NCBI GenBank assembly: GCA_052388375.1
Contig: JBQTIG010000011.1
Location: 92,080-156,079 of the forward strand
Direction of reading: 5' to 3'
Source of the DNA: Planctomycetaceae bacterium
GTDB lineage: Bacteria; Planctomycetota; PLA2
DNA: 64,000 nt
Program-made: the position numbers and the translations under genes
In this document: piece by piece, positions 9,653-62,861 of the stretch
Layout: the number at the start of each line of letters is the position of its first letter
Position numbering within the stretch: the stretch's first letter is position 1
The notes under the pieces: generated by a model
What the model saw: only the letters and a program-made list of their open reading frames with translations
The model's database searches: none
Told to the model about the DNA's origin: nothing

Positions 9653-11821
<2,169 letters not shown>

Positions 11822-11823
11822 GG

Positions 11824-22251: not shown

Positions 22252-22262
22252 AAAGGAACACC

Positions 22263-35871: not shown

Positions 35872-37356
35872 CTACTCCTCCGGTTCGATCACGACCACCT
35901 GCCGCAAGCCGGGGAGAGCGGCGTCCGTGGGCAGCCCTCCGGTGAGCCAGATGGACCCGTCCGCGGCGGTCGTGGCCGCGTGATGGGAGGTTGGGCGCGG
36001 GAGCCGCACGCCCACCAGCGGAAACATCCTTCCGGTGCTGCCGATCGGGTGGAACACCTCGATGGAGGTGCGCAGGAGCGCGGGGGAAGACTTGAAGTCG
36101 GTGCCTCCGGTGAGGATCACCCGGCCGTCTGCGAACGCCGCGGCGGCCGCGAAGGTGCGCTCTTCCCCGACCTGATTGACGGTTCCCAGGAACCCGAAGG
36201 TCGGGTCGAAGATCGAGACGCCGAGGGTGTCGAACCCGCCCGCCACGAACGCGCGACCGTCGGGGAGCAGCGTCGCGGCGGGGAAGACATGGAAGGCGGG
36301 AGCCGAGGGGGAGGGGGTCTCGAATCGCCCCAACGCCAGCCGGTAGCGCTCTCCGGAGGTTCCGGCGGAGGTGCCGCCCACGAGGATCACGTCGCCCCCC
36401 GGAAGGAGCGCCGTGAAGTGGCCGGAGCGGGCGCTCGCCATCCGCCCCGGGGCGGGGGTCCAGCGGTCGGCGACCGGATCGTAGATTTCGGCGTCGTCCA
36501 GGAACCGGAACCCGCCCGGCCCGGTCGTCTGGCCTCCGCTGAGGAAGACCCGTCCGTCGGCGAGGAGAACCCCGTGCGCGAAGCTGCGCGGCTGACCGAG
36601 GGGCGCGGCGGGCGTGGTGGCGACGAGCGCCGGATCGTAGATCTCGCAGGAGGCAAGGGGCTGGAAGGGGTCGTCGGAGCTCTCGCCCCCGGCCAGCAGC
36701 ACCCGCCCGTCCGCCAGAAGGACCTGCACATGCGCGGCGCGAGCCTCGCGGAGGGGCGTGGGGAGGAGGAACCCCTGGCGCGTGCGCGTGCTCAGCACCT
36801 CGATCCTCCCCAGCGCGGTCCCCAGGGCCGCGTACCCGCCGGCCACGAGGATCTGCGCGTCGTTGAGCACCGTCGCGCGATGGAAGAACCGGCCGAAGGC
36901 GAGCAGGTCGCCGAGATCGACGATCTGCTGCTGCGTGAGCAGCACCGGATCCTCCTCCACCGTCTGGAATTCGAACTCGTAGGGGCCGTCGAGTGGGGCG
37001 CCGTCGCGATCGCGCACTCCCGTGGAGACGCGGATGCGGTGCACGGCGAAGGGGTAGTAAGGCTGGATCGGGGAGAACCGCACGACCCCGGGATTGAGGG
37101 GCGCCACGCTCCGGCTGCCGAAGATCCGGTCACCCGATTCGACGACGATCTGCAGCGAATCCTCGTTCAACGTGGCCGCGTCGACCGGCCTGCTGAAGAA
37201 GAGCAGGATGTCGGCGTTGCGGGGAATGTCGCTCGCTTGATCCGGAGGTGCGACCTGATCCACCCGAAACGTGACGACGAACGCGCCGCCCCCGCCGCCT
37301 CCGCCGCAGGCCGCGGTGCAGGCGAGGAGCATCCCGAGAAGAAGGCGTTCCCACAT
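35872..37356 (-). CDS. Kelch-repeat beta-propeller lipoprotein with N-terminal Ig-like domain
   Basis: 494 aa from MWERLLLGMLLACTAACGGGGGGG; repeated ADGRV..GG Kelch units; upstream ORF portion is another frame. Confidence 0.68.
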   Translation of the reverse strand: MWERLLLGMLLACTAACGGGGGGGAFVVTFRVDQVAPPDQASDIPRNADILLFFSRPVDAATLNEDSLQIVVESGDRIFGSRSVAPLNPGVVRFSPIQPYYPFAVHRIRVSTGVRDRDGAPLDGPYEFEFQTVEEDPVLLTQQQIVDLGDLLAFGRFFHRATVLNDAQILVAGGYAALGTALGRIEVLSTRTRQGFLLPTPLREARAAHVQVLLADGRVLLAGGESSDDPFQPLASCEIYDPALVATTPAAPLGQPRSFAHGVLLADGRVFLSGGQTTGPGGFRFLDDAEIYDPVADRWTPAPGRMASARSGHFTALLPGGDVILVGGTSAGTSGERYRLALGRFETPSPSAPAFHVFPAATLLPDGRAFVAGGFDTLGVSIFDPTFGFLGTVNQVGEERTFAAAAAFADGRVILTGGTDFKSSPALLRTSIEVFHPIGSTGRMFPLVGVRLPRPTSHHAATTAADGSIWLTGGLPTDAALPGLRQVVVIEPEE

Positions 37357-37584
37357 CGTTCTGCCACCCAGCGCCGACGCACGCCCTTGCTTTCCTGACA
37401 AGCCCACACGGATTGTACCCCCGGTTCCTCCCGAGGGGAGGGGGGGTCTCGCGGCGCCCCTACCCCATCCCCAGAGGCGTTTCCCCGGGCCTCCGCCCTG
37501 GGCAGAGGGCCCCCCCGGGAGTAGCATCGGGGCTGGACTCTCCCCGGGTCGCCGCGCCCGCCTGGGAGTGTACCGGAGGCGCCC

Positions 37585-38076
37585 TTGCTCGATGTCGAAC
37601 ACCTCGATCTCGTCAGCCGATGGCTCGGCGAGAAGGAGAACTACCAGTGGCTCGACTTCGGCGCGGGGCACCAGGTGATCGCGCGCACGGCGCTCGCGCT
37701 CATGCGCCAGCGCGATCACCACTGCTTCCGGTTGCAGTTCGCCGGGGAGGGGGGGCCGCCGGTCGGCCTCGTCGCGTTGAGCAACATCTCCCCCAATTTC
37801 CGCAGCGCCATGCTCTGGTACCTTCTCGGCGACAAGCGCCATGCCGGCAAAGGCATCACGCGCCGCGGGGTCGAGGAAATCCTGCGCCACGCCTTCGGCC
37901 CGCTCGGTCTCCACTCCGTGTACGCCTGGTGCGTCGTCGAAAACGCTCCTTCCCAGCGCATCCTCCAGAGGAGCGGCTTCCGGGAGATCGGGCGCCAGCG
38001 CGAGTGCCACTTCATCGACGGCCGGCCGCACGATCGGATGCTCTACGATCTCCTGGCGCGCGAGTTCACGGGCTAG
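37585..38076 (+). CDS. GNAT family N-acetyltransferase
   Basis: 163 aa; acetyl-CoA binding block RHAGKGITRRGVEEIL; TTG start. Confidence 0.55.
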   Translation: MLDVEHLDLVSRWLGEKENYQWLDFGAGHQVIARTALALMRQRDHHCFRLQFAGEGGPPVGLVALSNISPNFRSAMLWYLLGDKRHAGKGITRRGVEEILRHAFGPLGLHSVYAWCVVENAPSQRILQRSGFREIGRQRECHFIDGRPHDRMLYDLLAREFTG

Positions 38077-38839
38077 CGCGCGCGACGAACAGCATCTCCT
38101 TGGAGTCGTCGCGGAACGGGCCGCGTCCGAAGTCGCCGTAGAGGGTCTCGACTTCGAGGCCGCACCGCGCGAGGAGGTGTTCCAGCTCGAACCGGTGGTA
38201 CCAGCGCATGGCGAAGGAGATGCGCTCCTCCCGTCGGCCCCCGCCGATCTCCTCGATCTCCCAGCGAAACGTGACCTCGGTGGTCTGGGAGGCCAGGTGG
38301 GGCGTGGCGGTGGAGAAGCGCCGGATGCGCCGTGTCCCCTCCTGCCGCTCCAGGTCGAGCCGCTCCGGCCGCGGCTCCATGAGGAAGCGCGGGTCGGGAT
38401 GGAAGAAGTCGAAGACGAGGCGCCCGCCCGGGGCGAGGTGGCTGCGGGCGTTCCGGAACGCGGCGAGCTGGGACGCGGTGTCGAGGAGGTGGGCGATGGG
38501 GCGGAAGGGGATCGTGACGAGGGGGAAGGTCCGCCCTGCAACGAAGCCGCGGAGGTCCCCCTCATGGAGGGTGACGCGAGCGCGCACAGCCGCCGTCTCG
38601 CCCGCGAGGGCGGCCCGCGCCTTTTCCAGCATGCTCCCGCTGAGGTCGACCCCGACGATCTCGACGCCTGCGCGCGCGATGGGCAGCAGCACGCGGCCCG
38701 TGCCGCAGGCCAGCTCCAGCACCGGTCCGCCGCTCCTCTGCCCCTCTTCGACGTAGAACGCGACGTCCCCCGAGGGCGTGCGGAACGCGGCATAGTCGCC
38801 GTCGTAGAACTCCGCGATGAGGCCGCTCTCGTACGCCAT
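38066..38839 (-). CDS. Class I SAM-dependent methyltransferase
   Basis: 257 aa from MAYESGLIAEFYDGDY; motif I VLELACGTGRVLL; last gene of arg operon. Confidence 0.7.
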   Translation of the reverse strand: MAYESGLIAEFYDGDYAAFRTPSGDVAFYVEEGQRSGGPVLELACGTGRVLLPIARAGVEIVGVDLSGSMLEKARAALAGETAAVRARVTLHEGDLRGFVAGRTFPLVTIPFRPIAHLLDTASQLAAFRNARSHLAPGGRLVFDFFHPDPRFLMEPRPERLDLERQEGTRRIRRFSTATPHLASQTTEVTFRWEIEEIGGGRREERISFAMRWYHRFELEHLLARCGLEVETLYGDFGRGPFRDDSKEMLFVARASP

Positions 38840-38876
38840 GGGGATGCCGCGTGGAACCGCCGCGGGGGGCGGCGGT

Positions 38877-40262
38877 TCACTCGCGCGCGGCGAGGCGGCG
38901 CTTCCAAGCGGCGAGTTCGCGACGCACGAGGGCCGGGGCGGTGCCGCCCCGCGCGCGCTTCGAGCGCAGGGCGGCGGCAAGGGTGAGGTGCCGCGCGACA
39001 TCGGGGCCGAACTCCCGAGCCGCCGCGCGCAGGCGCGCCTGGGGGAGAGCGGTCACGTCGATGCCCGCCTCCTCCGCCTCCCGCACCAGTCCCCCCACCA
39101 CCGCATGGGCGCGACGAAACGGGAGCCCCTTGCGCACGAGGTAGTCGGCCAACTCCACCGCGAGCAGGTGGCCTCCCTGGAGCGCCCGCGCGCACGCCTC
39201 GGGCGCGACCCGGCAGTCCCCCAGGGTCGCCGCCAGCCCACCCGCCACCGCCTCGACGGTGTCGGCGGCGTCGAAACAGGCCTCCTTGTCCTCCTGGAGG
39301 TCCTTGTTGTAGGCCAGCGGCAGCCCCTTGAGCGTCGTGGCCAGGGCGACGAACCGGCCCAGGAGCCGCCCCGCCTTTCCGCGCGCCAGCTCCGCCGCGT
39401 CGGGATTGCGCTTTTGGGGAAGCAGACTCGAGCCGGTGGAGGCCCTGTCCCCCAGCTTCAGGAAGCCGAATTCGCTCGAGGTCCAGGCGACCAACTCGGC
39501 GCCGAGGCGCGAGAACGTGAGGCCGAGGAGGGAGGCCGCGGCGAGATACTCCAGGGCGGCATCGCGCGAGCCCACGGCGTCGAGGCTGTTGGCGGAGATC
39601 CGGCGGAAGCCGAGACTCTTCGCCAACGCCCGGCGGTCCACCGGGACGCCGCTGCCCGCCGCGGCGCCCGAACCGAGGGGAAGCAGGTCGGCCCGGGTGC
39701 GGGCGCCGAGGAGCCGCGCGCGGTCGCGCTCGAGCATCTCCGCGTAGGCGAGCAGGTGGTGGGCGAAGAGGACCGGCTGGGCGCGCTGCCCATGGGTGTA
39801 GGCGGGAATCGCCGCCGCCCCGGCCCGCTCCGCGAGTTCCACGATAGCGCGGGCCACCGCCGTCGCCGCCGCGCAAGCCGCGTCGCAGGCCTTCTTGAGC
39901 CAGAGATGCAGGTCGCAAGCGACCTGGTCGTTGCGGCTGCGCCCGGTGTGCAGCTTCCCCCCCGCGGGCCCCGCCAGCTCCAGCAGTCTCCGCTCCACCG
40001 CGGTGTGGATGTCTTCGTCGGTCTCCCGCGCCGCGAAGCGCCCCTGGGCGAACTCCCGCCGGATCCGTTCCAGCCCCGACGTGATGCGGGTGAGCTCGGC
40101 GGCGGTGAGCAGGCCGGCGCGGCGCAGCGCCCGCGCCCAGGCGACCGAGCCGTCGATCTCCTCGCCGACCAGGCGGCGGTCGAAGGCGAACGAGCGGTTG
40201 AGCCGGTCGATCCGCACGTCCAGCTTTCCCGTGAAGCGTCCGCCCCACATCCGCCCGCTCAT
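38877..40262 (-). CDS. argH: Argininosuccinate lyase
   Basis: 461 aa from MSGRMWGGRF; fumarate lyase signature GSSLLPQKRNPD. Confidence 0.9.
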   Translation of the reverse strand: MSGRMWGGRFTGKLDVRIDRLNRSFAFDRRLVGEEIDGSVAWARALRRAGLLTAAELTRITSGLERIRREFAQGRFAARETDEDIHTAVERRLLELAGPAGGKLHTGRSRNDQVACDLHLWLKKACDAACAAATAVARAIVELAERAGAAAIPAYTHGQRAQPVLFAHHLLAYAEMLERDRARLLGARTRADLLPLGSGAAAGSGVPVDRRALAKSLGFRRISANSLDAVGSRDAALEYLAAASLLGLTFSRLGAELVAWTSSEFGFLKLGDRASTGSSLLPQKRNPDAAELARGKAGRLLGRFVALATTLKGLPLAYNKDLQEDKEACFDAADTVEAVAGGLAATLGDCRVAPEACARALQGGHLLAVELADYLVRKGLPFRRAHAVVGGLVREAEEAGIDVTALPQARLRAAAREFGPDVARHLTLAAALRSKRARGGTAPALVRRELAAWKRRLAARE

Positions 40263-41290
40263 GAGAGGAACGCCTCCGCGGTGGCGCGGTAGACCTCCAC
40301 GCCGCGCTCCAGCATCGCCGTCTCGATCCACTCGTCGGCCGCGTGGCTTTGCTCGCTGCGCCCGGGCCCCAGCACGACGCCGGGGAGGTCGCGCACATGG
40401 AACAGGTCGCTCACCCCGCCGAACGCCTGGGGCGGACCCGTCCCGGCGGCGTCCAGCGCCGCGGCGACGATCGCCTCGTGCGCGGGCGTCTCCACCGGCG
40501 CCATGCGGTCGCTGATCAGCTCCGCCTCGCCGCCGAGCAGCTTCCGCAGGGCGGGAAACATCTCGCGGTGGGAGGCGCCGGGAAGGGTGCGCGCGTCCAC
40601 CTCGAAGACGCACTCCGGAGGGACGACGTTCACCTTCACCCCGCCGCGGATCACCGTGACCTGGAGCGTGGCGGGTCCGAGAAGGGGGTGGGGGGCGGGG
40701 AGGGGGAACGCCTCGAGGGCCGCGACGTCGCGGCACGCCTTGAAGAAGGCGTTCTCGCCCAGCCAGGGGCGGGCGGCGTGGGCGCGCTTCCCCTTCGCCG
40801 TGACGCGGAACCGGAGCAGGCCGCGCTGGGCGGAGCAGACCCGGAGGCCCGTCGGCTCCCCGATCACCGCCGCATGGAGCTCCGGGAGCTCGGGGCGGAG
40901 CACGCCGAGCCCCTGGCCCCCGGTCTCTTCGTCGCAGGTCGCGGCAAAGACGAGCCGCGCGCCCTTCGGCAGCCGCGCTGTCGCGAAGGCGACGGCCAAG
41001 GCGGCGAGCGGTCCCTTAGCGTCGTTGCTCCCCAGCCCGTGCACCTTCCCCTCCCGCAGCTCCGCCGCGTGGGGGTCGATGGTCCACTCCTGCGAGGCGG
41101 GCACGGTGTCGGTGTGGCTGTTGAAGAGGAGCGTGCGCGGCCCGTCGCCGCGCACGGCGTAGAGGTTGCGCCCCGAGACGCGGGGCCCGAACGCCGCCAG
41201 CTCCTCGCGCAGGAGCGCGACGCAGCCCGCCTCGCTCCCCGAGACCGAGGGGATGCGCACCAGCGCGCGGGTCAGCTCGACGACGTTCAT
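40259..41290 (-). CDS. argE: M20 family metallopeptidase, probable acetylornithine deacetylase
   Basis: 343 aa; M20 metal ligands (HTDTV, DAKG, EETGG); within arg operon; 4-nt overlaps both sides. Confidence 0.72.
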   Translation of the reverse strand: MNVVELTRALVRIPSVSGSEAGCVALLREELAAFGPRVSGRNLYAVRGDGPRTLLFNSHTDTVPASQEWTIDPHAAELREGKVHGLGSNDAKGPLAALAVAFATARLPKGARLVFAATCDEETGGQGLGVLRPELPELHAAVIGEPTGLRVCSAQRGLLRFRVTAKGKRAHAARPWLGENAFFKACRDVAALEAFPLPAPHPLLGPATLQVTVIRGGVKVNVVPPECVFEVDARTLPGASHREMFPALRKLLGGEAELISDRMAPVETPAHEAIVAAALDAAGTGPPQAFGGVSDLFHVRDLPGVVLGPGRSEQSHAADEWIETAMLERGVEVYRATAEAFLS

Positions 41291-42204
41291 TCGTCGAGGT
41301 AGCGCGCTTCCTCTTCGCGGGTCGTCACCATCGTGCCGGTTCCCTCGTGGGTGAAGAGCTCCACGAGGATGCTGTGCGGGGCCTTGCCGTCCAGGATGTG
41401 CGCGCGGCGGACCCCGGCCCGCACCGCATAGAGCACGGTCTCGATCTTGGGCACCATGCCGCCGCGGATGACCCCGGAACCGAGGAGCTCCTCGCAGCGC
41501 GCCGCGGAGAGGTGGGAGATCAGGGAGGCGGGGTCCTTGGGGTCGGCCAGAACGCCGGGCGCGCTGGTGAGGAGGATGAGCTTGTCGGCTTTCAGGTCGA
41601 CCGCTATGCGCGCCGCGACGGTGTCGGCGTTGATGTTGAAGACGCGCCCCTGGCTGTCGCCGCCGAGGGAGGAGACGACGGGCACGTAGTCCTCCTCCGC
41701 GAGCTTGCGAAGCAGGCGCGTATCGACGCGTTCGATGTCGCCGACGTGGCCGAAGTCGATGGTCCGCGTCACCCCGGTGTCGGGATCGGAGATCTCGGTG
41801 GCGGGGCGCCGCACCGCGCTCACGATGCCCCCATCCACGCCGCTCAGGCCGACCGATTGCAGGCCGTGGCGCCGGAGCGCGCTCAGAATGTCGATGTTGA
41901 TCTGCCCGGCGAACACCATCTTGGCCACCTCCAGGGTGGCGTCGTCGGTGACCCGCCGTCCCTGGACGATTTCCGGCTCCACCCCGAGCTTGCGGGAGAG
42001 TTCGGTCGCCTGGGGCCCCCCCCCGTGGACAAGCACCATGCGCACGCCGATGGCGTGGCAGAGCGAGAGGTCGCCGGCGAGGAGATCGAGGGCCGCGCGG
42101 TCGCGGGCGATCTCCCCGCCGCACTTCACGACGAAGAAGGCGCCCCGGTGGCGCCGCATGTAGGGCAAGGCTTCGAGCAAGGTGGAGACGTTGGTTCCGT
42201 TCAT
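41287..42204 (-). CDS. argB: Acetylglutamate kinase
   Basis: 305 aa; VVKCGG, VHGGGPQ amino-acid kinase motifs. Confidence 0.9.
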   Translation of the reverse strand: MNGTNVSTLLEALPYMRRHRGAFFVVKCGGEIARDRAALDLLAGDLSLCHAIGVRMVLVHGGGPQATELSRKLGVEPEIVQGRRVTDDATLEVAKMVFAGQINIDILSALRRHGLQSVGLSGVDGGIVSAVRRPATEISDPDTGVTRTIDFGHVGDIERVDTRLLRKLAEEDYVPVVSSLGGDSQGRVFNINADTVAARIAVDLKADKLILLTSAPGVLADPKDPASLISHLSAARCEELLGSGVIRGGMVPKIETVLYAVRAGVRRAHILDGKAPHSILVELFTHEGTGTMVTTREEEARYLDE

Positions 42205-43208
42205 GCGTCCTTCAGGAGTTCGTGCAGGGCGGCCGCCTGGACCAGCACCCGGGAACGGGACTGCTCGGCGACCCAGGAATGGGGCCCGTCGATGACCTCG
42301 TCCGCCACGACCACGTTGCGGCGCACCGGCAGGCAGTGCATGAAGGCGCCCGGATCGCCGAGCGCCTGCCGCCGCCGATCCACGATCCAGCTCCGGAGGG
42401 GGGCGCGCAGCGCCGCGTCCCCCTCGGGATTCGCATAGGCGGAGAGCGCGCCCCACGCCTTGGCGTAGACGACCCGCGCGCCGGAGAGCCCCTCGTCCAT
42501 GTCGCCATGGAGCGTGAGGCGGCCGCCCGCGGACTCCCGCGCGTGCTCCATCACCTCCGCGTCCAACTCGAATCCGGGAGGATGCACGAGGCGGACGCGG
42601 TAGCCCGCGCGGCAGAAAGCGAGAAGCGCCGAATTGGGCACCGCGGTCGGAAGCGCCCGCGGATGCCAGGCCCAGGTGATCGCGATGGCATGCTCCGCGG
42701 GATCCCCTTCCAGGTGGTTGCGCAGCACGAGCAGGTCGGCGAGGGACTGCATCGGGTGAAACAGCACCGACTCGAGGTTGATCACCGGGACCTCCGAGCA
42801 GCGCGCGACGGCTTGGAGCACCGGATCCTGGCGCTGCTCCTCCCAGGGGCGCGCAAGGTCGGCGAAGCAGCGCACGCCGATGCAGTCCACCACGCCGCTC
42901 AGGAACTTCCCCACGGCGTCGCGCACATGCTCGGCCTTGTCGCCGTCCATGACCGCCCCGTCCCGCGTCTCCAGCGCCCAGACGCTCCTCCCGACGTCGT
43001 GGCAGCTGCAGAGCGCGCCCAGGGAGTAGCAGGCGACCTCCAGGGCGGTGCGCGTGCGCAGGGAGGGGTTGAAGAAGAGACCGCAGACCACCCGACCGAC
43101 GAGCGCGGGCGGGATCTCCGACTCGCGGAAACGGTCGGCAAGATCGAGGAGCGTGGTGACCTCCCCGTCCGACAGGTCCTCGAGGCTCAGGATCGAGCGG
43201 CCCCTCAC
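42201..43208 (-). CDS. argF: Ornithine (or N-acyl-ornithine) carbamoyltransferase
   Basis: SLRTR carbamoyl-phosphate motif, HCLP motif; GTG start giving 4-nt overlap with argD. Confidence 0.78.
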   Translation of the reverse strand: MRGRSILSLEDLSDGEVTTLLDLADRFRESEIPPALVGRVVCGLFFNPSLRTRTALEVACYSLGALCSCHDVGRSVWALETRDGAVMDGDKAEHVRDAVGKFLSGVVDCIGVRCFADLARPWEEQRQDPVLQAVARCSEVPVINLESVLFHPMQSLADLLVLRNHLEGDPAEHAIAITWAWHPRALPTAVPNSALLAFCRAGYRVRLVHPPGFELDAEVMEHARESAGGRLTLHGDMDEGLSGARVVYAKAWGALSAYANPEGDAALRAPLRSWIVDRRRQALGDPGAFMHCLPVRRNVVVADEVIDGPHSWVAEQSRSRVLVQAAALHELLKDA

Positions 43209-44383
43209 GCGAGCACGCTCCGCAGGGCATCGAGCGCCTCGTCGACTTCGCCTGGCGTCATCGTGAGCGGCGGAAAGATGCGGATCACCCGGGGGTCGCC
43301 TGGGCACTCGCCCACGAGGACCCGTCGTTCGGTGCGCAGGGCCGCCCGGGCGCGCGCGGCGTCGCCGCGCAGCCGCAACCCGAGCAGCGCTCCGTGACCC
43401 CGCACCTCCTCCAGGGCGCGCAGCCCGGCGAGCCCCCGCCGGAACGCTTCCTCCATCGCCAACGCACGAGACGGTCCGTCGATCTCCTCGAGGAGGGCGA
43501 GCGTGGCGTCGATGGCCGCGCAGGCGAGCGGGCCGCCGCCGAAGGTCGTTCCGAGGTCCCCGGGCTTCGTCGCGGCGGCGATCTCCCCGCGCGCGAGGAG
43601 CACCGAGGCGGGGAACCCGCCCGCCACCGCCTTGGCCATCGTGATGAGATCGGGGGCGATGCCCCAGCGCTCCCCGGCGAACCAGAAGCCCGTGCGGGCG
43701 GGCGCCGTCTGGATCTCGTCGAAGACGAGGAGCGCGCCGGTGGCGTCGCAGCGGCGACGCAGGGCCACGGCGAACGCCGGATCGAGGACACGCACTCCGC
43801 CCATGGACTGGATGGGCTCCACGAGGACGGCGGCGCAGCCGGTGTCGATGAGGCCCTCGAGCCCTGCGATGTCGTTGAACTCCCCGAACACGAACGCGCC
43901 CGCCGGGTCGAGGAGCGGCGCGGCGGCGTCGCGGTAGTGGCCGAGGGCGGTCGCCCCCAGGGCGCCGAGCGTGCGGCCGTGGAACCCGCCCTGGAACGCG
44001 GCGACGCGGATGCGCCCGGTGGCCTGGCGCGCCATGCGGAGAGCCGCTTCGTTCGCCTCCGCCCCCGAATTGACGAAGAAGGCGCGCGCGTCGGGCCAGG
44101 GGGCGAGGCGGCAGAGCCGTTCCGCGGCGCGCGCGCGCACCGGGAGGTGGACGAGGCTGGAGTAGAAGAGGAGATCCCGCGCCTGGTTGGCGATGGCGTC
44201 GACGACGCGCGCGGGGCTGTGGCCCAGGAGGCAGACCGCGTGGCCCCCGTAGAGATCGAGGTAGGCGGTGCCGTCCAGGTCATGGACGCGCGACCCCTCG
44301 CCGCGCGCCAGGACCAGGTCGGCGCGGGTGTAGGCGTTCGCCTCGCAGCGCGCCTGCGCCTCGATGATGGCGGCCCGGTTCAC
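43205..44383 (-). CDS. argD: Acetylornithine aminotransferase
   Basis: 392 aa class III PLP aminotransferase (LVFDEIQT, PLP Lys in MAKAVAGG). Confidence 0.85.
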   Translation of the reverse strand: MNRAAIIEAQARCEANAYTRADLVLARGEGSRVHDLDGTAYLDLYGGHAVCLLGHSPARVVDAIANQARDLLFYSSLVHLPVRARAAERLCRLAPWPDARAFFVNSGAEANEAALRMARQATGRIRVAAFQGGFHGRTLGALGATALGHYRDAAAPLLDPAGAFVFGEFNDIAGLEGLIDTGCAAVLVEPIQSMGGVRVLDPAFAVALRRRCDATGALLVFDEIQTAPARTGFWFAGERWGIAPDLITMAKAVAGGFPASVLLARGEIAAATKPGDLGTTFGGGPLACAAIDATLALLEEIDGPSRALAMEEAFRRGLAGLRALEEVRGHGALLGLRLRGDAARARAALRTERRVLVGECPGDPRVIRIFPPLTMTPGEVDEALDALRSVLA

Positions 44384-45411
44384 GGGTTGGCCCCAGGGAC
44401 GAGGAGGCCCGCCGTCTCCTCCATCCCGAAGAGCAGGTTGAGGTTTTGGAGCGCCTGCCCGCTCATCCCCTTCGTGAGGTTGTCGATCGCCGTGAGCACC
44501 ACCACGCGGCGGCCGCGCTGGGTGACGCTCAGGTCGCAGAAATTGGTGCGGACGACATGGCGCAGGGCCGGCGACTCCGTGCGGAGGCGCACGAACGGCT
44601 CACGGGCGTAGCGCGTCCCGTAGAGCGCGGCGGCGTCGACATCACGGTCGAGGCGCACGTGGGCGACGGTGAAGATGCCGCGGCTGAAGGCGCCCGACTG
44701 GGGCACCATGCCGAGGTCGAAGCCGGCGCCGCCGAGCCGCTTCAGCTCCTGCGCCACCTCGGGCTCGTGCTGGTGCGCCAGCACCTTGTAGGCGCGCTGG
44801 TCCTGCGCGCGTTCCGGGTGGTGCGTTCCCTCCTTCGGCTCCGCGCCGGAGCCGGAGGAGCCGGTGGTCTGCGCCAAGGTCACGTCGCCCGAGAGCAGCC
44901 CCGCTTCCGCCAAGGGCGCCAGCGCGAGGAGGGCGCCGGTGGCGAAGCAGCCTGGATTGGAGACGAAACGGCTGCGCGCGACGGCGGCGCGGTTGGTCTC
45001 CGGGAGTCCATAGGCGAAGAGGCTGCGATCTTCGAGAAAGGGGATCTCCTTGCCGTACGCCGCCTCGTGGGCCGCGCGGTCCTTCAACCGGAAGTCGCCG
45101 CTCAGGTCGACGACCCGCGCCTCGGGGAGCGCCGCCGTGACCTGCCGCCAGAGCGTGTGGGAGACCCCGTGCGGGGTGGCGAGGACAACCGCCCGGCAGG
45201 TGCGGGGAAGTTCGTCCGGCGCGCGGAAGAGCAGCTCGGGGTAGCAGCCGGCGAGCTGCGGCATCGCCTCCTCGACGCGGCGGCCCGCAAGGCGCTCGCT
45301 GCAGGCGGCGGCGACGCGAAACCCCGGATGGCTCGCGAGCAGGCGCAGGAGTTCCTGCCCTCCATAGCCGGTCGCGCCCAGGATCGCGAGATCGACGCGG
45401 GTTGCGGTCAC
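44380..45411 (-). CDS. argC: N-acetyl-gamma-glutamyl-phosphate reductase
   Basis: 343 aa from GTG; ILGATGYGG Rossmann; catalytic Cys in SNPGCFATG. Confidence 0.85.
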   Translation of the reverse strand: MTATRVDLAILGATGYGGQELLRLLASHPGFRVAAACSERLAGRRVEEAMPQLAGCYPELLFRAPDELPRTCRAVVLATPHGVSHTLWRQVTAALPEARVVDLSGDFRLKDRAAHEAAYGKEIPFLEDRSLFAYGLPETNRAAVARSRFVSNPGCFATGALLALAPLAEAGLLSGDVTLAQTTGSSGSGAEPKEGTHHPERAQDQRAYKVLAHQHEPEVAQELKRLGGAGFDLGMVPQSGAFSRGIFTVAHVRLDRDVDAAALYGTRYAREPFVRLRTESPALRHVVRTNFCDLSVTQRGRRVVVLTAIDNLTKGMSGQALQNLNLLFGMEETAGLLVPGANP

Positions 45412-46436
45412 GGAGCGAACGCCTCCGCCTCCACCAGGTCGGCCAGCCGCACCCCGTCGGTGCGGGCGTTGGCGGCGGGCACGCCCAACTGCTCGCTGAC
45501 GTAGCGCGTGCCGACCTCGTTGTCGGTGGCGGGCCCCGCCATCACGCCCAGCTTCAGCCCCAGCTCCTTCTCCAGGATCTGCTTGGCGCCCCAGGCCGCC
45601 ACCAAGTCGTTGGCGCAGAGGACGTGGCAGCGCGCGGCGGCGCGGATCTCCGGGTCCTCCAGGAGGGTGCGCACGCCGTAGTTGCCGATGATCCCGTCCC
45701 CGGTCTCTGCGACGACGACGTCCGGCTCGGCCGGGGCGAGCGCATTCAGGACCCCCTTGGCGATGGAGGGCAGGTTCTCCACGTCGCTCGTGCTCGGCAG
45801 GCCGCAGTCGAGGAACGAGAGCCCCTGCACGGCGCCGTGGTCCATCATGTTGAGCGTGTCGCGGAGCGCGGCGACGCCGGTCAGCTTCGCAGCGCCGACC
45901 CGGTAGCCGCGCTGGGTGAGATGGAAGATGATCTCCACCGCCGCTCGCGTCTTCCCGCTGTTCATGCAGGAGCCGGAGACGACGATGAGCGGGCAGGGCA
46001 GCGCGAGGGTGTCGGAGGGCGGGAGCGCCCCGTCGCGGATGTTCACCGGCTTGCCGTCCGGGCGGACGGCCATGCCGATCACCTCCACCTGGAGCGGGTG
46101 GCCCACCTCGCTCGTCGCGGAGGTGCATTCGCCCAGCACGCCGCCTAGGTTGAGCACGTGGATCTTGTCCCCGGCGCGCAGCGTCTGCGGCACCCGACCG
46201 ACGAAGCCCCGCAGCGCCGCCCGGGACCCGAGGGCGCCGGCGATCACGTCCCCCTTGGAGATGTGGGCCATGCGCCCCGTGGTGAGCTCCAGGACGTCAT
46301 AGACCTTTTTTTCCTCGAGGGCGCGCACCACGAGCACGTTCCCCACGCGCGCCTCGAGGATGCGGGAGACCTCGATCTCCTGCCCCAGGGCGAGACGGCT
46401 GGTGACCGATCCGAGCTTGTGGACGAAGACCTTCAC
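45408..46436 (-). CDS. DUF1611-like P-loop-containing protein (DgcN-like?) embedded in arg operon
   Basis: 342 aa; Walker-A-like GSCMNSGKT in Rossmann-like C-terminal domain, N-terminal beta-rich domain; 4-nt overlaps with argG and argC; family assignment from memory, not verified. Confidence 0.5.
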   Translation of the reverse strand: MKVFVHKLGSVTSRLALGQEIEVSRILEARVGNVLVVRALEEKKVYDVLELTTGRMAHISKGDVIAGALGSRAALRGFVGRVPQTLRAGDKIHVLNLGGVLGECTSATSEVGHPLQVEVIGMAVRPDGKPVNIRDGALPPSDTLALPCPLIVVSGSCMNSGKTRAAVEIIFHLTQRGYRVGAAKLTGVAALRDTLNMMDHGAVQGLSFLDCGLPSTSDVENLPSIAKGVLNALAPAEPDVVVAETGDGIIGNYGVRTLLEDPEIRAAARCHVLCANDLVAAWGAKQILEKELGLKLGVMAGPATDNEVGTRYVSEQLGVPAANARTDGVRLADLVEAEAFAP

Positions 46437-47623
46437 GCGGGATTCTCCTCCGCCGCGAGACGCGACGGGACACCGAGGATCTTGCAGAATCCGGCGGCGT
46501 CGCGCCCGTCCCAGAGCGCGGAGCCTTCGCCGTAGCGGGCGCCGGGCCGCACCAGGGCGTGGGGGGACCGGACGCCGGTGACCTCTGCGCGGCCCCGGCG
46601 CAACCGGACGCGCACGTCGCCGGAGACCCGCGCCTGGGACGAGAGGAGCAGCGCCTCGAGGTCCCGGCAGACCGGGTCGAAGTAGTGCCCCTCGTGGAGG
46701 TAGTCGCCGAAGAGCGCCCCGGCGCTGTTCTTGAGCTCGGCCTGGCGTTTCGTGAGGACCAGCTTCTCCAGCTCGCGGTGGGCGGCGATGAGGAGGGTGG
46801 CCGCGGGGGCGACGAATCCGACGCGCCCCTTGATGCCCAGGATCGTGTCGCCCAGGTGGACCCCGCGGCCGATGCCCAGGGGCCGTGCGCGGCGGTCCAA
46901 CTCCGCCAGGAGTTCGAGGGGGGGGCGGGGGGAGCCGTCCAGCGCGACCGGCAGTCCCTTGGCGAACCCGAGGACGAGTTCCGTCTCGCGGGCGTCCGGA
47001 GCAAGGCGCGAGCCCGCCGCTTCGTAGGCCTCCTCCGGAATCTCCATCCAGGGATCGTGGGTGTCGCCGCCCCCCACGGTGGTGCCGACGAGCCCATGGT
47101 TGACGGAGTAGCGCGTCGTCTTGGGCGGCACGTCGACTCCCGCGGCGCGCAGCGCCGCGGTGGAGGCTTCCCGCGAGACCTGTTTCTCGCGGATGGGGGC
47201 GAGGATGGTCAGGTGCGGGGCGAGGGTCGCGATGGCGACATCGAAGCGGACCTGGTCGTTGCCCGCTCCGGTGCAGCCGTGGGCGACCGCCGCCGCATCG
47301 AGGCGGCGCGCGGCGCGCACCAGCTCCTCCGCTTGGACCACCCGCTCGGCTCCCACCGCCACTGGGTAGACCCCCCCGCGCAGCGCGTTGCCGCGCAGGA
47401 GGTAGGCGAAGAATCGCTCGTAGACGGCGAGGCGGCCGTCCACGTTGAGGTGCTCGCGGGCCCCCAGCTTGCGCGCGCGGTCGGCGATGGCCCGCAACTC
47501 CTCGGGGCCGAAGCCCCCCGCGTCGACGGTTACGGTGACGACGTCATAGCCTTCGCGCCGGAGCGCGAGGAGGCAATAGGAGGTATCCAGACCCCCGGAG
47601 AAGGCGAGCGTGGCGAGGGGCAT
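46433..47623 (-). CDS. argG: Argininosuccinate synthase
   Basis: 396 aa from MPLATLAFSGGLDTS (PP-loop); first gene of operon. Confidence 0.85.
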   Translation of the reverse strand: MPLATLAFSGGLDTSYCLLALRREGYDVVTVTVDAGGFGPEELRAIADRARKLGAREHLNVDGRLAVYERFFAYLLRGNALRGGVYPVAVGAERVVQAEELVRAARRLDAAAVAHGCTGAGNDQVRFDVAIATLAPHLTILAPIREKQVSREASTAALRAAGVDVPPKTTRYSVNHGLVGTTVGGGDTHDPWMEIPEEAYEAAGSRLAPDARETELVLGFAKGLPVALDGSPRPPLELLAELDRRARPLGIGRGVHLGDTILGIKGRVGFVAPAATLLIAAHRELEKLVLTKRQAELKNSAGALFGDYLHEGHYFDPVCRDLEALLLSSQARVSGDVRVRLRRGRAEVTGVRSPHALVRPGARYGEGSALWDGRDAAGFCKILGVPSRLAAEENPA

Positions 47624-50733: not shown

Positions 50734-50810
50734 GCGCCCGTAGCTCAACTGGATAGAGCGCCTGGCTACGGACCAGGAGGCTGAGGGTTCAAATCCTTCC
50801 GGGCGTACCA
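50734..50810 (+). tRNA. tRNA-Arg (ACG) with encoded CCA
   Basis: GCGCCCGTAGCTCAACTGGATAGAGCG CCTGG CTACGGA CCAGG...GGTTCAAATCC; antisense ORF 50533..50811 typical of tRNA. Confidence 0.85.
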
Positions 50811-50881: not shown

Positions 50882-51931
50882 TCAGTCCTTCGGCAGGCTC
50901 TTGTCGGGGGCGACGGCGCGCAGGGCGGATGCGAGGGCTTGCGCCTTGATCTTGCCTGTCAGGAGCTTCGCGAGCTTGCCGTCCTTCTTCAGCACCGCGA
51001 CGGCCGGGGTCTCCGCGGCTCCCACGCGCTCCATCACCTCCGGGTGCGCCGAGGCGTCGAGCTTGACGCAGGCGAGTTGGGCGCCGAACCGGCGCACCAG
51101 AGGGTCGCCCAGGATCTCGTTCTGCAGCGCCTTCGCTTCCGGCTTGGCGGCATCGTCGGCGGAGAATAGATAGACCAGCAGGCCCCCCTTCTTCGCGCCC
51201 TCCACCCGCGCGAGGGCCGCCTCCAGATCGTCGCCCCAGTCGAAGTTGCGGTCCTCCCCCGGCACGAACCGCCCCTCCTGGGCACCCATCCACCAGCGCA
51301 AATAGGCTTCGTGCTCGTTGGGCCAGGAATGGCCGAGCCCGGGCTGGAGCCGCACCTCGACGGAGCGCACCTTCTCCCGGAGCAGGTCCACCGTCTTCCG
51401 CGCCGCGTCGGCGTTGGGGTCGTCCGCCCCCGCCAGGGCAAGGGCGCCCATCCCCTTGCGCGCCCACTTGGGCACCGCGCCCCCGTTGTAGCCGGCCGCC
51501 ACCCAGGTGGCGCTGCAGGGGTGCAGGTCGTCGTCGAAGGCGATCGACGCAAGGTTCCAGCCGCCGTTCGAATACCCCACGACGTGGACCTTGGCCGGGT
51601 CGATGGGAAGCGTGGCCTTGAGATGCGCCCCGATGCGCAGCACCGCCTTGATGTCTGCGGGGCTCCATCCATCACCCTTGGACTTGGGCGCGCAGACGAC
51701 ATAGCCGTCGTCCTCCCAAAGCGCCAGGGTCGCCGCCATGCCCGAGGCCGTCCCTCCGAGACCATGGAGGATGAGGACGAGCGACGCCGGCTTCTCCTTG
51801 TCGATTTCGTCGGGAACCAGGAGCCAGGTGTCCAGCCCCTCGATGACGCGATTCGTCTTTCCGGGGGCGGGGCCTTCGTCGGCCACCGCGACCGCGACGA
51901 GCAGGAGCGAGAAGAGGGCGGAAGCGCGCAT
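50882..51931 (-). CDS. Secreted alpha/beta-hydrolase (esterase/depolymerase-like) fused to C-terminal thioredoxin-like domain
   Basis: 349 aa from MRASALFSLLLVAVAVA; LILHGLGG, GYSNGG nucleophile elbow; C-terminal about 110 aa thioredoxin-fold-like; start coordinate plus/minus 10 nt. Confidence 0.6.
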   Translation of the reverse strand: MRASALFSLLLVAVAVADEGPAPGKTNRVIEGLDTWLLVPDEIDKEKPASLVLILHGLGGTASGMAATLALWEDDGYVVCAPKSKGDGWSPADIKAVLRIGAHLKATLPIDPAKVHVVGYSNGGWNLASIAFDDDLHPCSATWVAAGYNGGAVPKWARKGMGALALAGADDPNADAARKTVDLLREKVRSVEVRLQPGLGHSWPNEHEAYLRWWMGAQEGRFVPGEDRNFDWGDDLEAALARVEGAKKGGLLVYLFSADDAAKPEAKALQNEILGDPLVRRFGAQLACVKLDASAHPEVMERVGAAETPAVAVLKKDGKLAKLLTGKIKAQALASALRAVAPDKSLPKD

Positions 51932-51958
51932 GCCTGGACCCGCATAGAATCCCCGACG

Positions 51959-52933
51959 GTGCGCCTCTTCGCCATCCTCCTCCTCTGCGGCCTGCTCCTG
52001 CCCGCCTGCGCCCGGGACCCGATGGCCCCCGCCCCCCTCCCTCTCGCCCGCCTCGAAGCCAGGCCGCTGCCCGCGGGGCAACGCATCGAGCTGGATGGAC
52101 GCAGGAACGACGCAGCGTGGGACGAAACTCCCGAGCTGGTCGTGGCCCTCACGGGTCCCGGCCCGACGGAGGTGCGGCTCCGGGCGCTCCATGACGGGGA
52201 GAGGCTCTTCCTCCTAGCCGAATGGGAGGACCGAGAGGTCTCCCTGAACCGCTATTGGAAGCTGCAGGAGGGGGGAGCGTGGGTACGCCACGTCGGGGAG
52301 GACGGCATCGCGCTCCTCTGGGTCCCCGGGTCCCTGGGGGAGGTCTTTCGCACACAGGGTTGCGCGATCTCCTGCCACGATGCCAGGCATCAACGCGACG
52401 GCCCGCGCGGCTATTTCGATGTCTGGAGCTGGGGCGCGCAGCGGTCCAGCCAGTTCGGCCAAGCCATCGACATGGTTCTGGATTTCGGGGCGGGCGGGCG
52501 ACTGCGCGGGGACGGCCAGCCCGCCGAGTCGGGAAACCTGCCCAACGAGAACAGCCAGTTCCGCGGCCCGGCGGCCGTGCCGCAGCGGGTCACTCCAGAG
52601 TCGACGCGCTTCCTGCGCTGGGCCAACGCGCAGCCCTTTTCCCTCGAGCGTCACGAGGCGAGGAAGCAGGACTCGGTCGGATGGGAGGTGCCCTACGACC
52701 TGCTGCGCCCGGGCAAGGGGAGCCGCGGCGACGTCGCAGCAGCCGGCTTTCACGCCGAGGGGAGGTGGTGCGTGGAGATGAGCCGGCTGTTTCGCACCGG
52801 CAACGGCGATGACGAGCCCCTCGGGGATCCGATCGCGCCCGCGCACTTCGCCCTGACGCTGCACGATGCGGCGGAAGGGGGCGACCACGCGATCTCGGGC
52901 CCGATCGAACTGCGCTTCGTGGCGGCCCGTTAG
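51959..52933 (+). CDS. Lipoprotein with ethylbenzene-dehydrogenase-like (EB_dh/DOMON-type) haem-binding domain
   Basis: GTG start VRLFAILLLCGLLLPAC lipobox; family call tentative; start plus/minus 10 nt. Confidence 0.45.
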   Translation: MRLFAILLLCGLLLPACARDPMAPAPLPLARLEARPLPAGQRIELDGRRNDAAWDETPELVVALTGPGPTEVRLRALHDGERLFLLAEWEDREVSLNRYWKLQEGGAWVRHVGEDGIALLWVPGSLGEVFRTQGCAISCHDARHQRDGPRGYFDVWSWGAQRSSQFGQAIDMVLDFGAGGRLRGDGQPAESGNLPNENSQFRGPAAVPQRVTPESTRFLRWANAQPFSLERHEARKQDSVGWEVPYDLLRPGKGSRGDVAAAGFHAEGRWCVEMSRLFRTGNGDDEPLGDPIAPAHFALTLHDAAEGGDHAISGPIELRFVAAR

Positions 52934-58358: not shown

Positions 58359-60368
58359 ATGGCTCTCATGTCCGCCTTTCGACTGCGGTCCGAATTCGAA
58401 CCGAAGGGGGACCAGCCCGACGCCATCGAGGCGCTCACCCTGGGGATCGCTCAGGGGGCGCGGGAGCAGACGCTTCTCGGGGTGACCGGATCGGGCAAGA
58501 CCTTCACGATCGCCCACACCCTGGCCCGCGCGGGACGGCCGGCCCTGGTGCTCGCGCCCAACAAGGTGCTCGCCGCCCAGCTGTTCGACGAGTTCCGCCA
58601 CCTCTTTCCCGAGAACGCGGTGGAGTACTTCGTCTCCTACTACGACTACTACCTGCCCGAGGCCTACGTCCCGTCCACCGACACCTTCATCGAGAAGGAG
58701 GCGACAATCAACGACCGCATCGACCGGATGCGTCATCGCGCCACCTACTCGGTGCTCACGCGGCGCGACGTGATCGTGGTCGCCTCGATCTCCTGTATCT
58801 TCGGCCTCGGCTCGCCGGAGTCCTACCACGATATGCACCTCCACCTGGAGGCGGGGCAGATCCAGGCGCGGGACGACCTGCTGCGCAAGCTCGCGATCAA
58901 CCTGTACAACCGCGCGGGGATGGACTTCCACCGCGGCACGTTTCGCGTGCGCGGCGACGTCGTGGATGTCTTCCCGGTCTACGCCGACGACCACGTGGTG
59001 CGCCTCGAGTTCTTCGGGGACACGCTGGAGGCGATCCGCATCATCGACCCTCTCACCGGGGAGGTTCGGGAGACCCGCGCCAGCGTCGACATCTACCCGG
59101 GGAGCCACTACGTGACGCCGCAGGAGCGCATGGATCAGGCCTGCACGACCATCGAGGCGGAGCTGGAGGAGCGCATCCGGTTCTTCCGCGCGCACCGGAA
59201 GCTGCTGGAGGCGCAGCGCATCGAGCAGCGCACCCGCTACGACCTGGAGCTCCTGCGGGAAGTCGGGACCTGCGCCGGCATCGAGAACTATTCGCGCCAC
59301 CTGGACGGGCGCGCGCCGGGCCAGGCGCCCTGGACGCTCCTCAGCTACTTCCCCGCAGATTTCCTTCTCATCGTGGACGAGAGCCACATCTCCCTCCCCC
59401 AGGCGGGGGGGATGTATCGCGGGGATCGATCGCGCAAGGAGGTCCTCGTGGAGCACGGCTTCCGGCTCCCCTCCGCCCTCGACAACCGTCCCCTCACGTT
59501 CGAGGAGTTCGAGGAGCGCGCGGGCCAGCGCATCTACGTGAGCGCGACCCCCTCCGAGTTCGAGCTGCGCCGCTCGTCGGGGCGCGTGGCGGAGCAGATC
59601 GTCCGCCCCACGGGACTGATCGATCCCGTGGTGGAGGTGCGTCCGGTGGAGCACCAGGTGGACGACCTGATGGCAGAGATCCGGGCCCGGGCGGCGCTCC
59701 GCGAGCGCACCCTGGTGACCACCCTCACCAAGCGGATGGCGGAGGAGCTGACCGAGTACTACGCCGAGGCGGGGGTGCGCTGCCGCTACCTGCACAGCGA
59801 CGTCGAGACCCTGGAACGGACCGAGATCGTGCGCGAGCTCCGCCAGGGCCTCTTCGACGCGCTCATCGGGATCAACCTCCTGCGCGAGGGGCTCGATCTC
59901 CCCGAGGTCTCCCTCGTGGCGGTGCTGGATGCCGACAAGGAGGGGTTCCTGCGCGACACGCGCTCGCTCATCCAGACGAGCGGCCGCGCCGCACGCAACC
60001 TCAACGGCAAGGTGATCTTCTATGCCGACACCGTGACCGGGTCGATGCGGCGCGCCCTCGACGAGATGGACCGCCGCCGCACCCGCCAGCTCGCCTACAA
60101 CGCGAAGCACGGGATCACGCCGGAGAGCGTGCGCAAGCGCATCGGCGACCTCCTGGCCAGCGTCTACGAGGCGGACTACGCGCCGGTTCCCGAGGCGCGG
60201 GAGGAGGCGCCGCCCTTCGAGCGCTGGTCGCCGGAGCGCACCGCCCAGGAGATCGCCCGGCTCCAGCGGGAGATGCTGCGATCGGCGGAAGAGCTGAAAT
60301 TCGAACGGGCCGCGGAGCTGCGCGACCGGATCCGCGAACTCGAGGCGCACGAGCTTCGCGTCCGATGA
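58359..60368 (+). CDS. uvrB: Excinuclease ABC subunit B
   Basis: GVTGSGKT Walker A, helicase motifs, C-terminal UVR domain; start at MALMSAF or MSAFRL 9 nt later. Confidence 0.9.
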
Positions 60369-62179: not shown

Positions 62180-62210
62180 TCCCGTCCCGCGGCGAGGGGA
62201 TACTTCCCCC

Positions 62211-62861
62211 ATGAAGTTCTTCCTCGACACCGCCGACCTGGGCGAGATCCGCCGCTACGCCGAGATGGGCCTTCTGGACGGCATCACCACCAACCCCTCC
62301 CTGGTCGCCAAGTCGGGCAAGAGCCGCGAGGAGGTCATCGCCGCGATCTGCGAGATCGTGGATGGGCCGATCAGCGCCGAGGTCATCGCGCTCGAGCGCA
62401 AGGAGATGGTCGCGGAAGGGTTGCGGCTCGCGGAGATCCACAAGAACGTCACCGTGAAGGTGCCGCTCACTCCGGACGGCCTGGCCGCCTGCCGCGAGCT
62501 GACCCGCTCCAAGGTCAAGGTGAACGTGACGCTCTGCTTCAGCCCCGTGCAGGCGCTCCTGGCGGCGAAGGCGGGTGCGACCTTCATCAGCCCCTTCATC
62601 GGGCGGCTCGACGACATCGGCCTGACCGGCATGGGACTCGTCGCCGACATCCGCGAGATCTACGACAACTACTCCTTCCCGACGGAGATCCTCGTCGCCT
62701 CCATCCGTTCCCCCGACCACGTGCGCGTGGCCGCCAAGATCGGCGCGGATGTGGCCACGGTCCCGCCCGCGGTGATGGGCCAGCTGATCCGGCACCCCCT
62801 CACCGATCTCGGGCTCGAGAAATTCCTCGCCGACCACCGGGCGGCAGGGAAGCCGCGCTGA
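62211..62861 (+). CDS. tal: Transaldolase family protein (fructose-6-phosphate aldolase-like short type)
   Basis: 216 aa from [13 protein letters not shown]; catalytic Lys in VTVKVP. Confidence 0.85.

Follow-up and report, generated by a model that had tools for sequence, protein, structure and literature searches.

The question raised by this locus is which protein commits glutamate to arginine synthesis in an operon where the first step is the only one of the pathway without a recognisable gene. The window analysed is a stretch of 64,000 nucleotides (nt), about 72% G+C, of a Planctomycetaceae metagenome-assembled genome (MAG) contig, and in it nine co-directional open reading frames (ORFs) of the minus strand fill positions 38066-47623, in the order argG, X, argC, argD, argF', argB, M20, argH and methyltransferase. 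X, as we call it here, is a two-domain P-loop protein of 342 residues, and we consider it reasonably probable that the operon encodes the succinyl-type (or "Bacteroides-type") arginine pathway with X as a non-homologous first enzyme, which would form N-succinylglutamate from succinyl-coenzyme A (succinyl-CoA).

The operon is tightly packed, with 4-nt start/stop overlaps at seven junctions (GTGA at four of them, ATGA at three) and a 37-nt gap between argH and the methyltransferase gene. An earlier note on this DNA had described the nine genes with this order, these overlaps and this gap, and its coordinates and junctions were all reproduced. Overlaps of 4 nt are an ordinary mark of translational coupling in compact high-GC operons; among the relative operons the junction spacing varies and these overlaps are not conserved. 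The gene identities were observed directly from Pfam and NCBIfam matches, which assigned every gene of the operon, X excepted:

46433-47623, minus strand: argG, argininosuccinate synthase, 396 residues (Pfam Arginosuc_synth and Arginosuc_syn_C; TIGR00032, 285 bits, cutoff 268)
45408-46436, minus strand: X, two-domain P-loop protein, 342 residues, GTG start, candidate N-succinyl-L-glutamate synthase
44380-45411, minus strand: argC (TIGR01850, 319 bits, cutoff 234)
43205-44383, minus strand: argD, N-acyl-ornithine aminotransferase, 392 residues (Aminotran_3, E 8e-85)
42201-43208, minus strand: argF', knotted N-acyl-ornithine carbamoyltransferase with the signature of an N-succinylornithine carbamoyltransferase (SOTCase), 335 residues (NF003384, 341.6 bits, cutoff 288)
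41287-42204, minus strand: argB, N-acyl-glutamate kinase, 305 residues (TIGR00761, 226 bits, cutoff 151; AA_kinase is its sole domain)
40259-41290, minus strand: M20, deacylase of the ArgE/DapE family, 343 residues (Pfam Peptidase_M20 and M20_dimer)
38877-40262, minus strand: argH, argininosuccinate lyase, 461 residues, without a fused acetyltransferase domain (TIGR00838, 505 bits, cutoff 280)
38066-38839, minus strand: class I S-adenosylmethionine-dependent methyltransferase, 257 residues (Pfam Methyltransf_25, Methyltransf_12 and Methyltransf_23)

The top NCBIfam models of ArgD are of the acetylornithine/succinylornithine transaminase type, every one of them scoring under its cutoff, and the NCBIfam scan of the M20 enzyme gave no model above cutoff. 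A first enzyme of a familiar kind was sought in several places. Pfam shows no acetyltransferase (NAT) domain in ArgB or ArgH, X has no GNAT/NAT or ArgJ (PF01960) match in Pfam or NCBIfam, and Pfam found no GNAT, NAT, ArgJ or ArgR domain in about 40 further ORFs of the window, so that the earlier observation that the operon is devoid of argA and argJ was borne out, by Pfam and NCBIfam searches of the operon proteins and these additional ORFs, over 64 kb of the MAG. The close association of X with arg genes, seen across several phyla, makes it the best candidate for the absent N-acyl-glutamate synthase. X would share its proposed position in the pathway with the classical N-acetylglutamate synthases (ArgA with its AAK and GNAT domains, ArgJ, the short S-NAGS and the Xanthomonas ArgA/B), and one X lineage is likewise fused to a kinase; unlike these enzymes, which have a GNAT or ArgJ fold, X shows neither fold nor sequence similarity to them.

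It is in the carbamoyltransferase where the acyl group of the pathway can be read. Glu92, Asn185 and Lys302, in Xanthomonas campestris numbering, mark the N-acetylornithine carbamoyltransferases (AOTCases), the SOTCase equivalents being A/S/P/V/Q, P and V/I/E, respectively (PMC4581275), and GapMind applies the same position-90/92 rule (PMC7311316). The E92A mutation alone turns an AOTCase into a SOTCase. The alignment of ArgF' to the X. campestris AOTCase structures shows A92 (42933-42935), P187 (42648-42650) and V300 (42309-42311) at the three specificity positions. Its best PDB matches are X. campestris AOTCase structures (234 bits, with the E92A mutant on top), followed by the B. fragilis SOTCase structures 1js1 and 2fg6 (170 bits), as against about 81-89 bits for ordinary ornithine carbamoyltransferases, which places ArgF' in the knotted AOTCase/SOTCase clade and means that the gene named argF in the earlier note does not encode an ornithine carbamoyltransferase. 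Moreover, all 47 ArgF' orthologues (47/47) found in X-containing loci have a non-Glu residue, P and (V or I) at the three positions, with A, V, I, T, Q, S or P at position 92 and never E, and the cultured Woeseia oceani has the same pattern, with Ala at 92. The acyl group of the pathway is thus most likely succinyl rather than acetyl, as judged from these residues. NF003384 is titled "N-acetylornithine carbamoyltransferase", and ArgF' passes its cutoff despite the succinyl-type residues, so the model appears not to separate AOTCases from SOTCases, and automatic naming has probably gone wrong throughout this group of operons; here, the NCBIfam names "N-acetylornithine carbamoyltransferase" and "hypothetical protein" mislabel the operon.

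The same signature bears on the M20 enzyme. ArgF' acts on acylated ornithine, and therefore M20 would act after carbamoylation and not on acetylornithine; because ArgF' carries the SOTCase triad, its substrate would be N-succinylcitrulline, and the earlier view of M20 as an ArgE working on N-acetylornithine is not upheld. In the PDB, M20 matches 3ct9 with 175 bits, whereas 7rsf, an entry deposited as acetylornithine deacetylase, scores 84, and 2f7v, an acetylcitrulline deacetylase, 74.5. We take 3ct9, a B. thetaiotaomicron structural-genomics protein (NP_812461), to be probably BT3549, which GapMind proposes as N-succinylcitrulline desuccinylase, and the M20 enzyme is probably an N-succinylcitrulline desuccinylase as well, to go by these matches. 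In its enzyme set and SOTCase triad, the operon is like the Bacteroides-type succinyl pathway, with its SOTCase ArgF', N-succinylglutamate kinase, ArgA2/BT3761 and desuccinylase BT3549; the two differ in that the first enzyme of the Bacteroides-type pathway is the GNAT-type ArgA2, which is absent from the operon and the window, where the unrelated P-loop protein X occupies that slot. A pathway with the LysW/ArgX carrier protein was also considered and rejected, given that ArgF' is of the N-acyl-ornithine type and that there is no ATP-grasp ligase among the scanned ORFs; small ORFs of the LysW type were not specifically searched for.

How general is the association of X with arginine genes? GTDB species representatives were scanned, giving 143 relatives of X, and 80 loci were retained; the MAGs in which they lie are labelled Planctomycetota, Acidobacteriota (Thermoanaerobaculia), Gemmatimonadota, Chloroflexota, Wallbacteria and Gammaproteobacteria. 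When the arg proteins of the window were mapped onto these loci, X was directly seen to adjoin argG and/or argC in nearly all of the 80, where sequence was available; in the earlier note, a lack of such co-occurrence, together with a canonical argJ or argA elsewhere, was to refute the proposal. Most of the loci have the complete order argG-X-argC-argD-argF'-argB-M20-argH. In the Gemmatimonadota and Chloroflexota loci, the arg genes found begin with X, in the order X-argC-argD-argB(-argG-argH), and one further locus reads X-argC-argD-argB-M20-argR-argG-argH. In further searches, members of the family also turned up in Myxococcota, Blastocatellia, Pyrinomonadaceae and Woeseiaceae, the last of which are abundant in the sea, and the W. 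oceani locus has the order argR-argG-X-argC-argD-argF'-argB-argH, without an M20 gene; a full-length alignment of X with the protein of W. oceani, a gammaproteobacterium, gives 42% identity (E 4e-88). About 14 Planctomycetota loci contain the argG-X pair alone. In the four of these that were inspected (L031, L039, L048 and L058, with X at about 10001-11030), nadA is a neighbour; in L031 and L058, the pair has corA upstream and lipB-nadA downstream, and for L039 and L048 the scan covered nadA alone. In this Planctomycetota clade with dispersed operons, X is thus most tightly linked to argG, which encodes the seventh step, and not to argB or argC.

A natural fusion was also found, in which a full-length X is joined in frame to an ArgB-type amino-acid kinase (P0167, at 9860-11881 of locus L082, and also in L083, L084 and L085). 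The fusion is not an assembly artefact, since the identical gene lies inside the contigs of four independent Joint Genome Institute metagenome assemblies. It was called with 626 residues and has about 673 when started from an upstream ATG, which gives back the full N-terminus of X. The fused gene is not part of an arg operon and is oriented divergently to a gene of the arginase family; it belongs to a single lineage, and none of the 120 best relatives of P0167 showed another fusion. ArgB is the next enzyme of the pathway and the user of the product of the missing step, and X and ArgB are joined here in the way in which synthase and kinase are joined in ArgA and in the Xanthomonas ArgA/B. An apparent X-ArgC product (P0254) was rejected as a fusion, being a frameshift or low-complexity artefact. 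Another relative (P0264, 519 residues) is an X-family protein with a response-regulator receiver domain attached at its N-terminus, a hint of phosphorelay control, or of a different role, in some members of the family.

X itself is 100% identical to a Planctomycetaceae MAG protein annotated as hypothetical, and its start codon is backed by homologues that start at the same position (MKV.VHK). A first homologue search placed more than 2900 clusters at 90% identity in the family, all of them unnamed or "hypothetical", and a search of representatives gave 1796 clusters at 50% identity (E<=1e-3). X matches no Pfam or NCBIfam family; at E<=10, Pfam gives only MobB, with E 0.075 and 13.4 bits, compared with a cutoff of 26.6, and a single-sequence search of the PDB returned noise only. 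An AlphaFold2 model made on a 31-sequence alignment (mean predicted local distance difference test score, pLDDT, 91.5) begins with an all-beta domain (about residues 1-146), after which comes an alpha/beta P-loop domain (about 150-342), in agreement with the earlier description of a two-domain protein carrying a Walker-A-like GSCMNSGKT. With residue conservation scored over 60 diverse family members, the features of X are the following:

45999-46436, minus strand: N-terminal all-beta domain, about residues 1-146 (AlphaFold2 secondary structure)
45948-45974, minus strand: Walker A motif or P-loop GSCMNSGKT, residues 155-163 (G161 and K162 invariant, T163 nearly so)
45876-45893, minus strand: AAKLTG segment with K184 (K184 invariant)
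45693-45707, minus strand: E244-T-G-D-G, Walker-B-like acidic motif (E244 invariant, ending strand E240-246 in the model)

Also nearly invariant, besides T163, are D193, D210 and D277, together with E50 and R72 in the N-terminal domain. This latter domain is modelled confidently (pLDDT about 86-92), and when it was modelled alone and compared with the PDB by Foldseek no structural neighbour was found (best E 0.74), so that it may be an undescribed domain.

The class of the P-loop domain is clear from its Walker A motif GxxxxGK[ST] and its P-loop NTPase fold, by which X is a SIMIBI P-loop protein. Its Foldseek neighbours are SIMIBI NTPases, namely SRP54/FtsY, dethiobiotin synthetase and HypB (E 8e-7 to 3e-5), as well as MeaB, the whole set spanning E 8e-7 to 5e-5, and the dethiobiotin synthetase structures 1dae, 1dts and 3of5 are matched with E about 1e-5. 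Of the sequence profiles run against the PDB, one (A1) reached only the P-loops of dethiobiotin synthetase and NDK, another (A2) reached those of dethiobiotin synthetase and FtsY with E about 1e-5 (2.2e-5 for 3fgn of M. tuberculosis), and a third (A4), built around PF07755-flagged members, found nothing in the PDB. Opposite the GSCMNSGKT of X, dethiobiotin synthetase has the P-loop GTDTEVGKT, and in the profile alignment K184 falls on Lys37 of the E. coli enzyme. X therefore shares with the dethiobiotin synthetase and CbiA (CobB, CobQ) ligases the fold, a G-[ST]-x-x-x-x-G-K-T P-loop, the K37-aligned lysine and an E-x-G-x-G motif after a beta strand; it differs from them in that the similarity is limited to the P-loop region, below the family thresholds, and in its extra beta domain of about 145 residues.

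The family to which X had been likened in the earlier note is DUF1611, whose member DgcN, a D-glutamate N-acetyltransferase (PF07755/PF17396, PDB 7XRJ), has a P-loop (SIMIBI-type) C-terminal domain like that of X and N-acylates glutamate. The profile searches did not confirm membership. X has no match to PF07755 (DUF1611_C) even at E<=10, Pfam finds nothing in residues 1-146, DUF1611_N (PF17396) included, the N-terminal domains differ, and X is likewise below the gathering scores of AAA_26, CbiA and MobB. Among the 60 family members, sub-threshold Pfam matches were to CbiA in 40, MobB in 35, DUF1611_C in 31 and AAA_26 in 17. The best DUF1611_C match in the family has E 1.6e-5, with per-member scores seen of 17-21 bits under a gathering score of 25, and this is no better than CbiA or MobB, which match more members. 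The best E values of the relatives for CbiA, MobB and AAA_26 range from 3.4e-6 to 1.8e-4, with the per-member scores seen also below gathering scores. X is not a DUF1611 member, and its likeness to the family is found only at the level of the shared P-loop superfamily. If the analogy is nevertheless pursued, DgcN and X as proposed would differ in substrate (D-glutamate vs. L-glutamate), in acyl group (acetyl vs. succinyl) and in purpose (catabolism vs. biosynthesis).

The idea of a non-orthologous first enzyme has already been published in a preprint as a computational prediction, and X looks like a further member of the family concerned. According to the preprint, Steroidobacter denitrificans grows in minimal medium without ArgA, and its arg cluster holds the hypothetical protein ACG33_RS14135 (A0A127FCT3), whose homologues are described as virtually always in arg operons and never together with ArgA homologues. 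Its predicted structure is reported there to be weakly like DgcN (PDB 7XRJ, E 1.4e-7), and 90-97% of the neighbouring ArgF' proteins are stated to have A/P/S/V/I/T at position 92; the protein was entered in GapMind as a predicted ArgA, a prediction made without experiments. It is very likely, from the match of the descriptions and by way of the gammaproteobacterial W. oceani protein, that X belongs to this family. As portrayed there, the preprint family is a hypothetical protein in operons with argB, argC, argD, argF', argG and argH, to which argE and argR may be added, next to an ArgF' with a non-Glu residue at 92, and has only a remote DgcN/DUF1611 P-loop similarity; X agrees with this portrait in its operon and its ArgF', and its own likeness to DUF1611 is remote as well. 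The X operon, which is from a Planctomycetota MAG, differs in including the M20 deacylase, as the Steroidobacter and Woeseia operons have no M20, and the passages of the preprint consulted do not mention the X-ArgB fusion, the neighbourless all-beta N-terminal domain or an ATP-ligase alternative. The "ArgA2" (GNAT, Bacteroidetes) and "ArgA3" of Ashniev et al. are proteins other than X (PMC9026213).

We suggest that the pathway would run as follows. X would convert L-glutamate to N-succinylglutamate, taking the place of the GNAT-type ArgA2/BT3761 of Bacteroidetes; ArgB would phosphorylate this product, ArgC would reduce it, and ArgD would transaminate it to N-succinylornithine, which ArgF', being of the SOTCase type, would carbamoylate to N-succinylcitrulline. 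The M20 enzyme would then desuccinylate N-succinylcitrulline to citrulline, and ArgG and ArgH would lead from there to arginine. As to the reaction of X and its acyl donor, we infer that X most likely moves the succinyl group of succinyl-CoA onto the alpha-amino group of L-glutamate, and by analogy with DgcN we also infer distinct roles for its two domains, in that the P-loop domain would hold the nucleotide-like part of CoA and the beta domain would help to bind glutamate.

Several points weigh against this succinyl-CoA reading and have to be kept in mind. The intact Walker A motif and the invariant E244 and K184 are at least as compatible with a phosphoryl-transfer enzyme as with a CoA-binding transferase. 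DgcN 7XRJ is outside the top 50 Foldseek neighbours of X, with SRP GTPases, dethiobiotin synthetase and HypB ranking higher, and the sequence profiles built from the X family do not reach it. The absence of ArgA, ArgJ or ArgA2 refers to 64 kb of one MAG, the link from X to ACG33_RS14135 runs through the W. oceani protein and a matching description, and the role of the family is a prediction from sequence, here as in the preprint. The structural points lead directly to an alternative that we regard as unlikely and that nevertheless deserves attention, in which X is a CoA-independent, ATP-dependent succinate:L-glutamate ligase that, like dethiobiotin synthetase and the CobB/CobQ amidases, would use ATP to phosphorylate a carboxylate, here that of succinate, with the glutamate amino group attacking the resulting succinyl phosphate, and in which the succinate freed by the desuccinylase would be re-used, closing a succinate cycle. 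The fold and profile neighbours of X (dethiobiotin synthetase, CbiA, MobB and SRP-type NTPases) speak for such a ligase, as does the fact that its nearest detectable relatives are phosphoryl-transfer enzymes activating carboxylates or carbamates, and it would also make good use of an intact G161-K162-T163, an E244 invariant within E-x-G-D-G and an invariant K184 aligned with Lys37 of dethiobiotin synthetase, with DgcN outside the top 50 neighbours; the evidence from the pathway context is identical for ligase and transferase. To our knowledge, however, there is no N-acyl-amino-acid ligase of dethiobiotin synthetase-like fold, and CoA binding may be another use of the conserved residues of NTPase type. 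In addition, DgcN, the sole characterised relative cited for the family, is described as an acetyltransferase in the preprint.

The acyl group itself is what separates the succinyl-CoA reading from the proposal of the earlier note, in which X was an acetyl-CoA-dependent N-acetylglutamate synthase of the DUF1611/DgcN family at the head of a linear acetylated pathway ending in ArgE. That part of the proposal which made X a non-orthologous first enzyme stands up well, as the operon is without a recognisable one and X is arg-linked, and the acetyl version could further appeal to the NCBIfam model name "N-acetylornithine carbamoyltransferase" and to the weak DUF1611_C similarity in about half of the diverse family members. 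The acetyl group, on the other hand, does not agree with an ArgF' triad of the succinyl type, in which Glu92, Asn185 and Lys302 are absent and A/P/V is the succinyl-specific combination, nor with an M20 that must work after carbamoylation and not on acetylornithine, and X fails DUF1611 membership, so that we consider the acetylated pathway very improbable. It is also improbable, in our opinion, that X is an accessory or regulatory NTPase, either a metallochaperone of M20, in the manner of HypB, UreG or MeaB, or a protein that assists or regulates ArgG or ArgB, with the first enzyme encoded elsewhere. HypB and MeaB are among the structural neighbours of X, the argG-X pair persists in a clade where the other arg genes are dispersed and could equally point to a link with ArgG, which also weighs against the synthase role, and fusion to ArgB or to a receiver domain (P0264) would fit a regulatory module. 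Against this stand the Pfam models of the G3E chaperones (cobW, MeaB), which match just one of 60 members, the mutual exclusion of the family and ArgA homologues that the preprint reports, and the large, conserved and family-specific N-terminal domain, whose invariant charged residues suggest substrate binding. A dedicated metallochaperone role for M20 was rejected, since X is present in clusters without an M20 gene, such as that of W. oceani (L086).

The question is of importance in that the step by which glutamate enters the arginine pathway is among those that bacterial genome annotation most frequently leaves "missing". If X catalyses this step, arginine prototrophy could be called correctly in lineages known mostly from MAGs, namely Planctomycetota, Thermoanaerobaculia and other Acidobacteriota, Gemmatimonadota, Chloroflexota, Woeseiaceae and Myxococcota. 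The succinylated form of the pathway, which until now has been linked to Bacteroidetes, would then be widespread, and P-loop proteins could stand in for GNAT acyltransferases. Should X instead be the ATP-dependent ligase, a new enzyme chemistry would be found at the committing step, in a new two-domain architecture. To the published prediction, our analysis adds the distribution in Planctomycetota and other MAGs, the uniform SOTCase signature of the X-linked ArgF' proteins examined, the natural fusion of X with ArgB, the anatomy of the two domains and the matter of which acyl donor is used.

The last gene of the operon, encoding the methyltransferase, has as its top NCBIfam match a daptide-type methyltransferase (113 bits, under the cutoff of 175), and among the relatives just the closest ones (L001, L002 and L006) have it 3' of argH. 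No terminator-like site was found between argH and this gene, which is probably a lineage-specific passenger outside the arginine pathway. Its 3' end overlaps by about 76 nt with the 3' end of a convergent ORF, 37413-38141 on the plus strand, which has no Pfam match. As for the control of the operon, a search for sigma-70-type promoters found none, terminator-like sites were not above the shuffled background, an Rfam scan gave no leader or riboswitch, and argR was not found in the window; argR belongs to the arg cluster in W. oceani and in L081. A tRNA-Arg(ACG) gene lies at 50734-50810 on the plus strand, 3 kb upstream of the arginine operon and just after a divergent ABC-2 transporter/CAAX-protease gene, and its closeness to the operon is probably a coincidence.

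Elsewhere in the window, very long ORFs in other frames, such as one of 1508 residues at 35872-40398 on the minus strand, which spans argH and the methyltransferase gene and has an atypical G+C content at the second (GC2, 0.64) and third (GC3, 0.80) codon positions, are not genes; they are shadow ORFs typical of DNA with 72% G+C. The ORFs at 20850-24278 and 35980-37398 on the plus strand and at 50882-52213 and 60176-62230 on the minus strand, up to 1142 residues long, have a coding-type GC3 bias and no Pfam match at E<=0.001. A tRNA-His(GTG) gene is present at 8791-8867 on the plus strand. Finally, the plus-strand ORF at 13023-14444, just upstream of thiG, encodes an unusual fusion of an OMP-decarboxylase/HUMPS domain (residues 49-249) with an RraA-like aldolase domain (residues 283-428).

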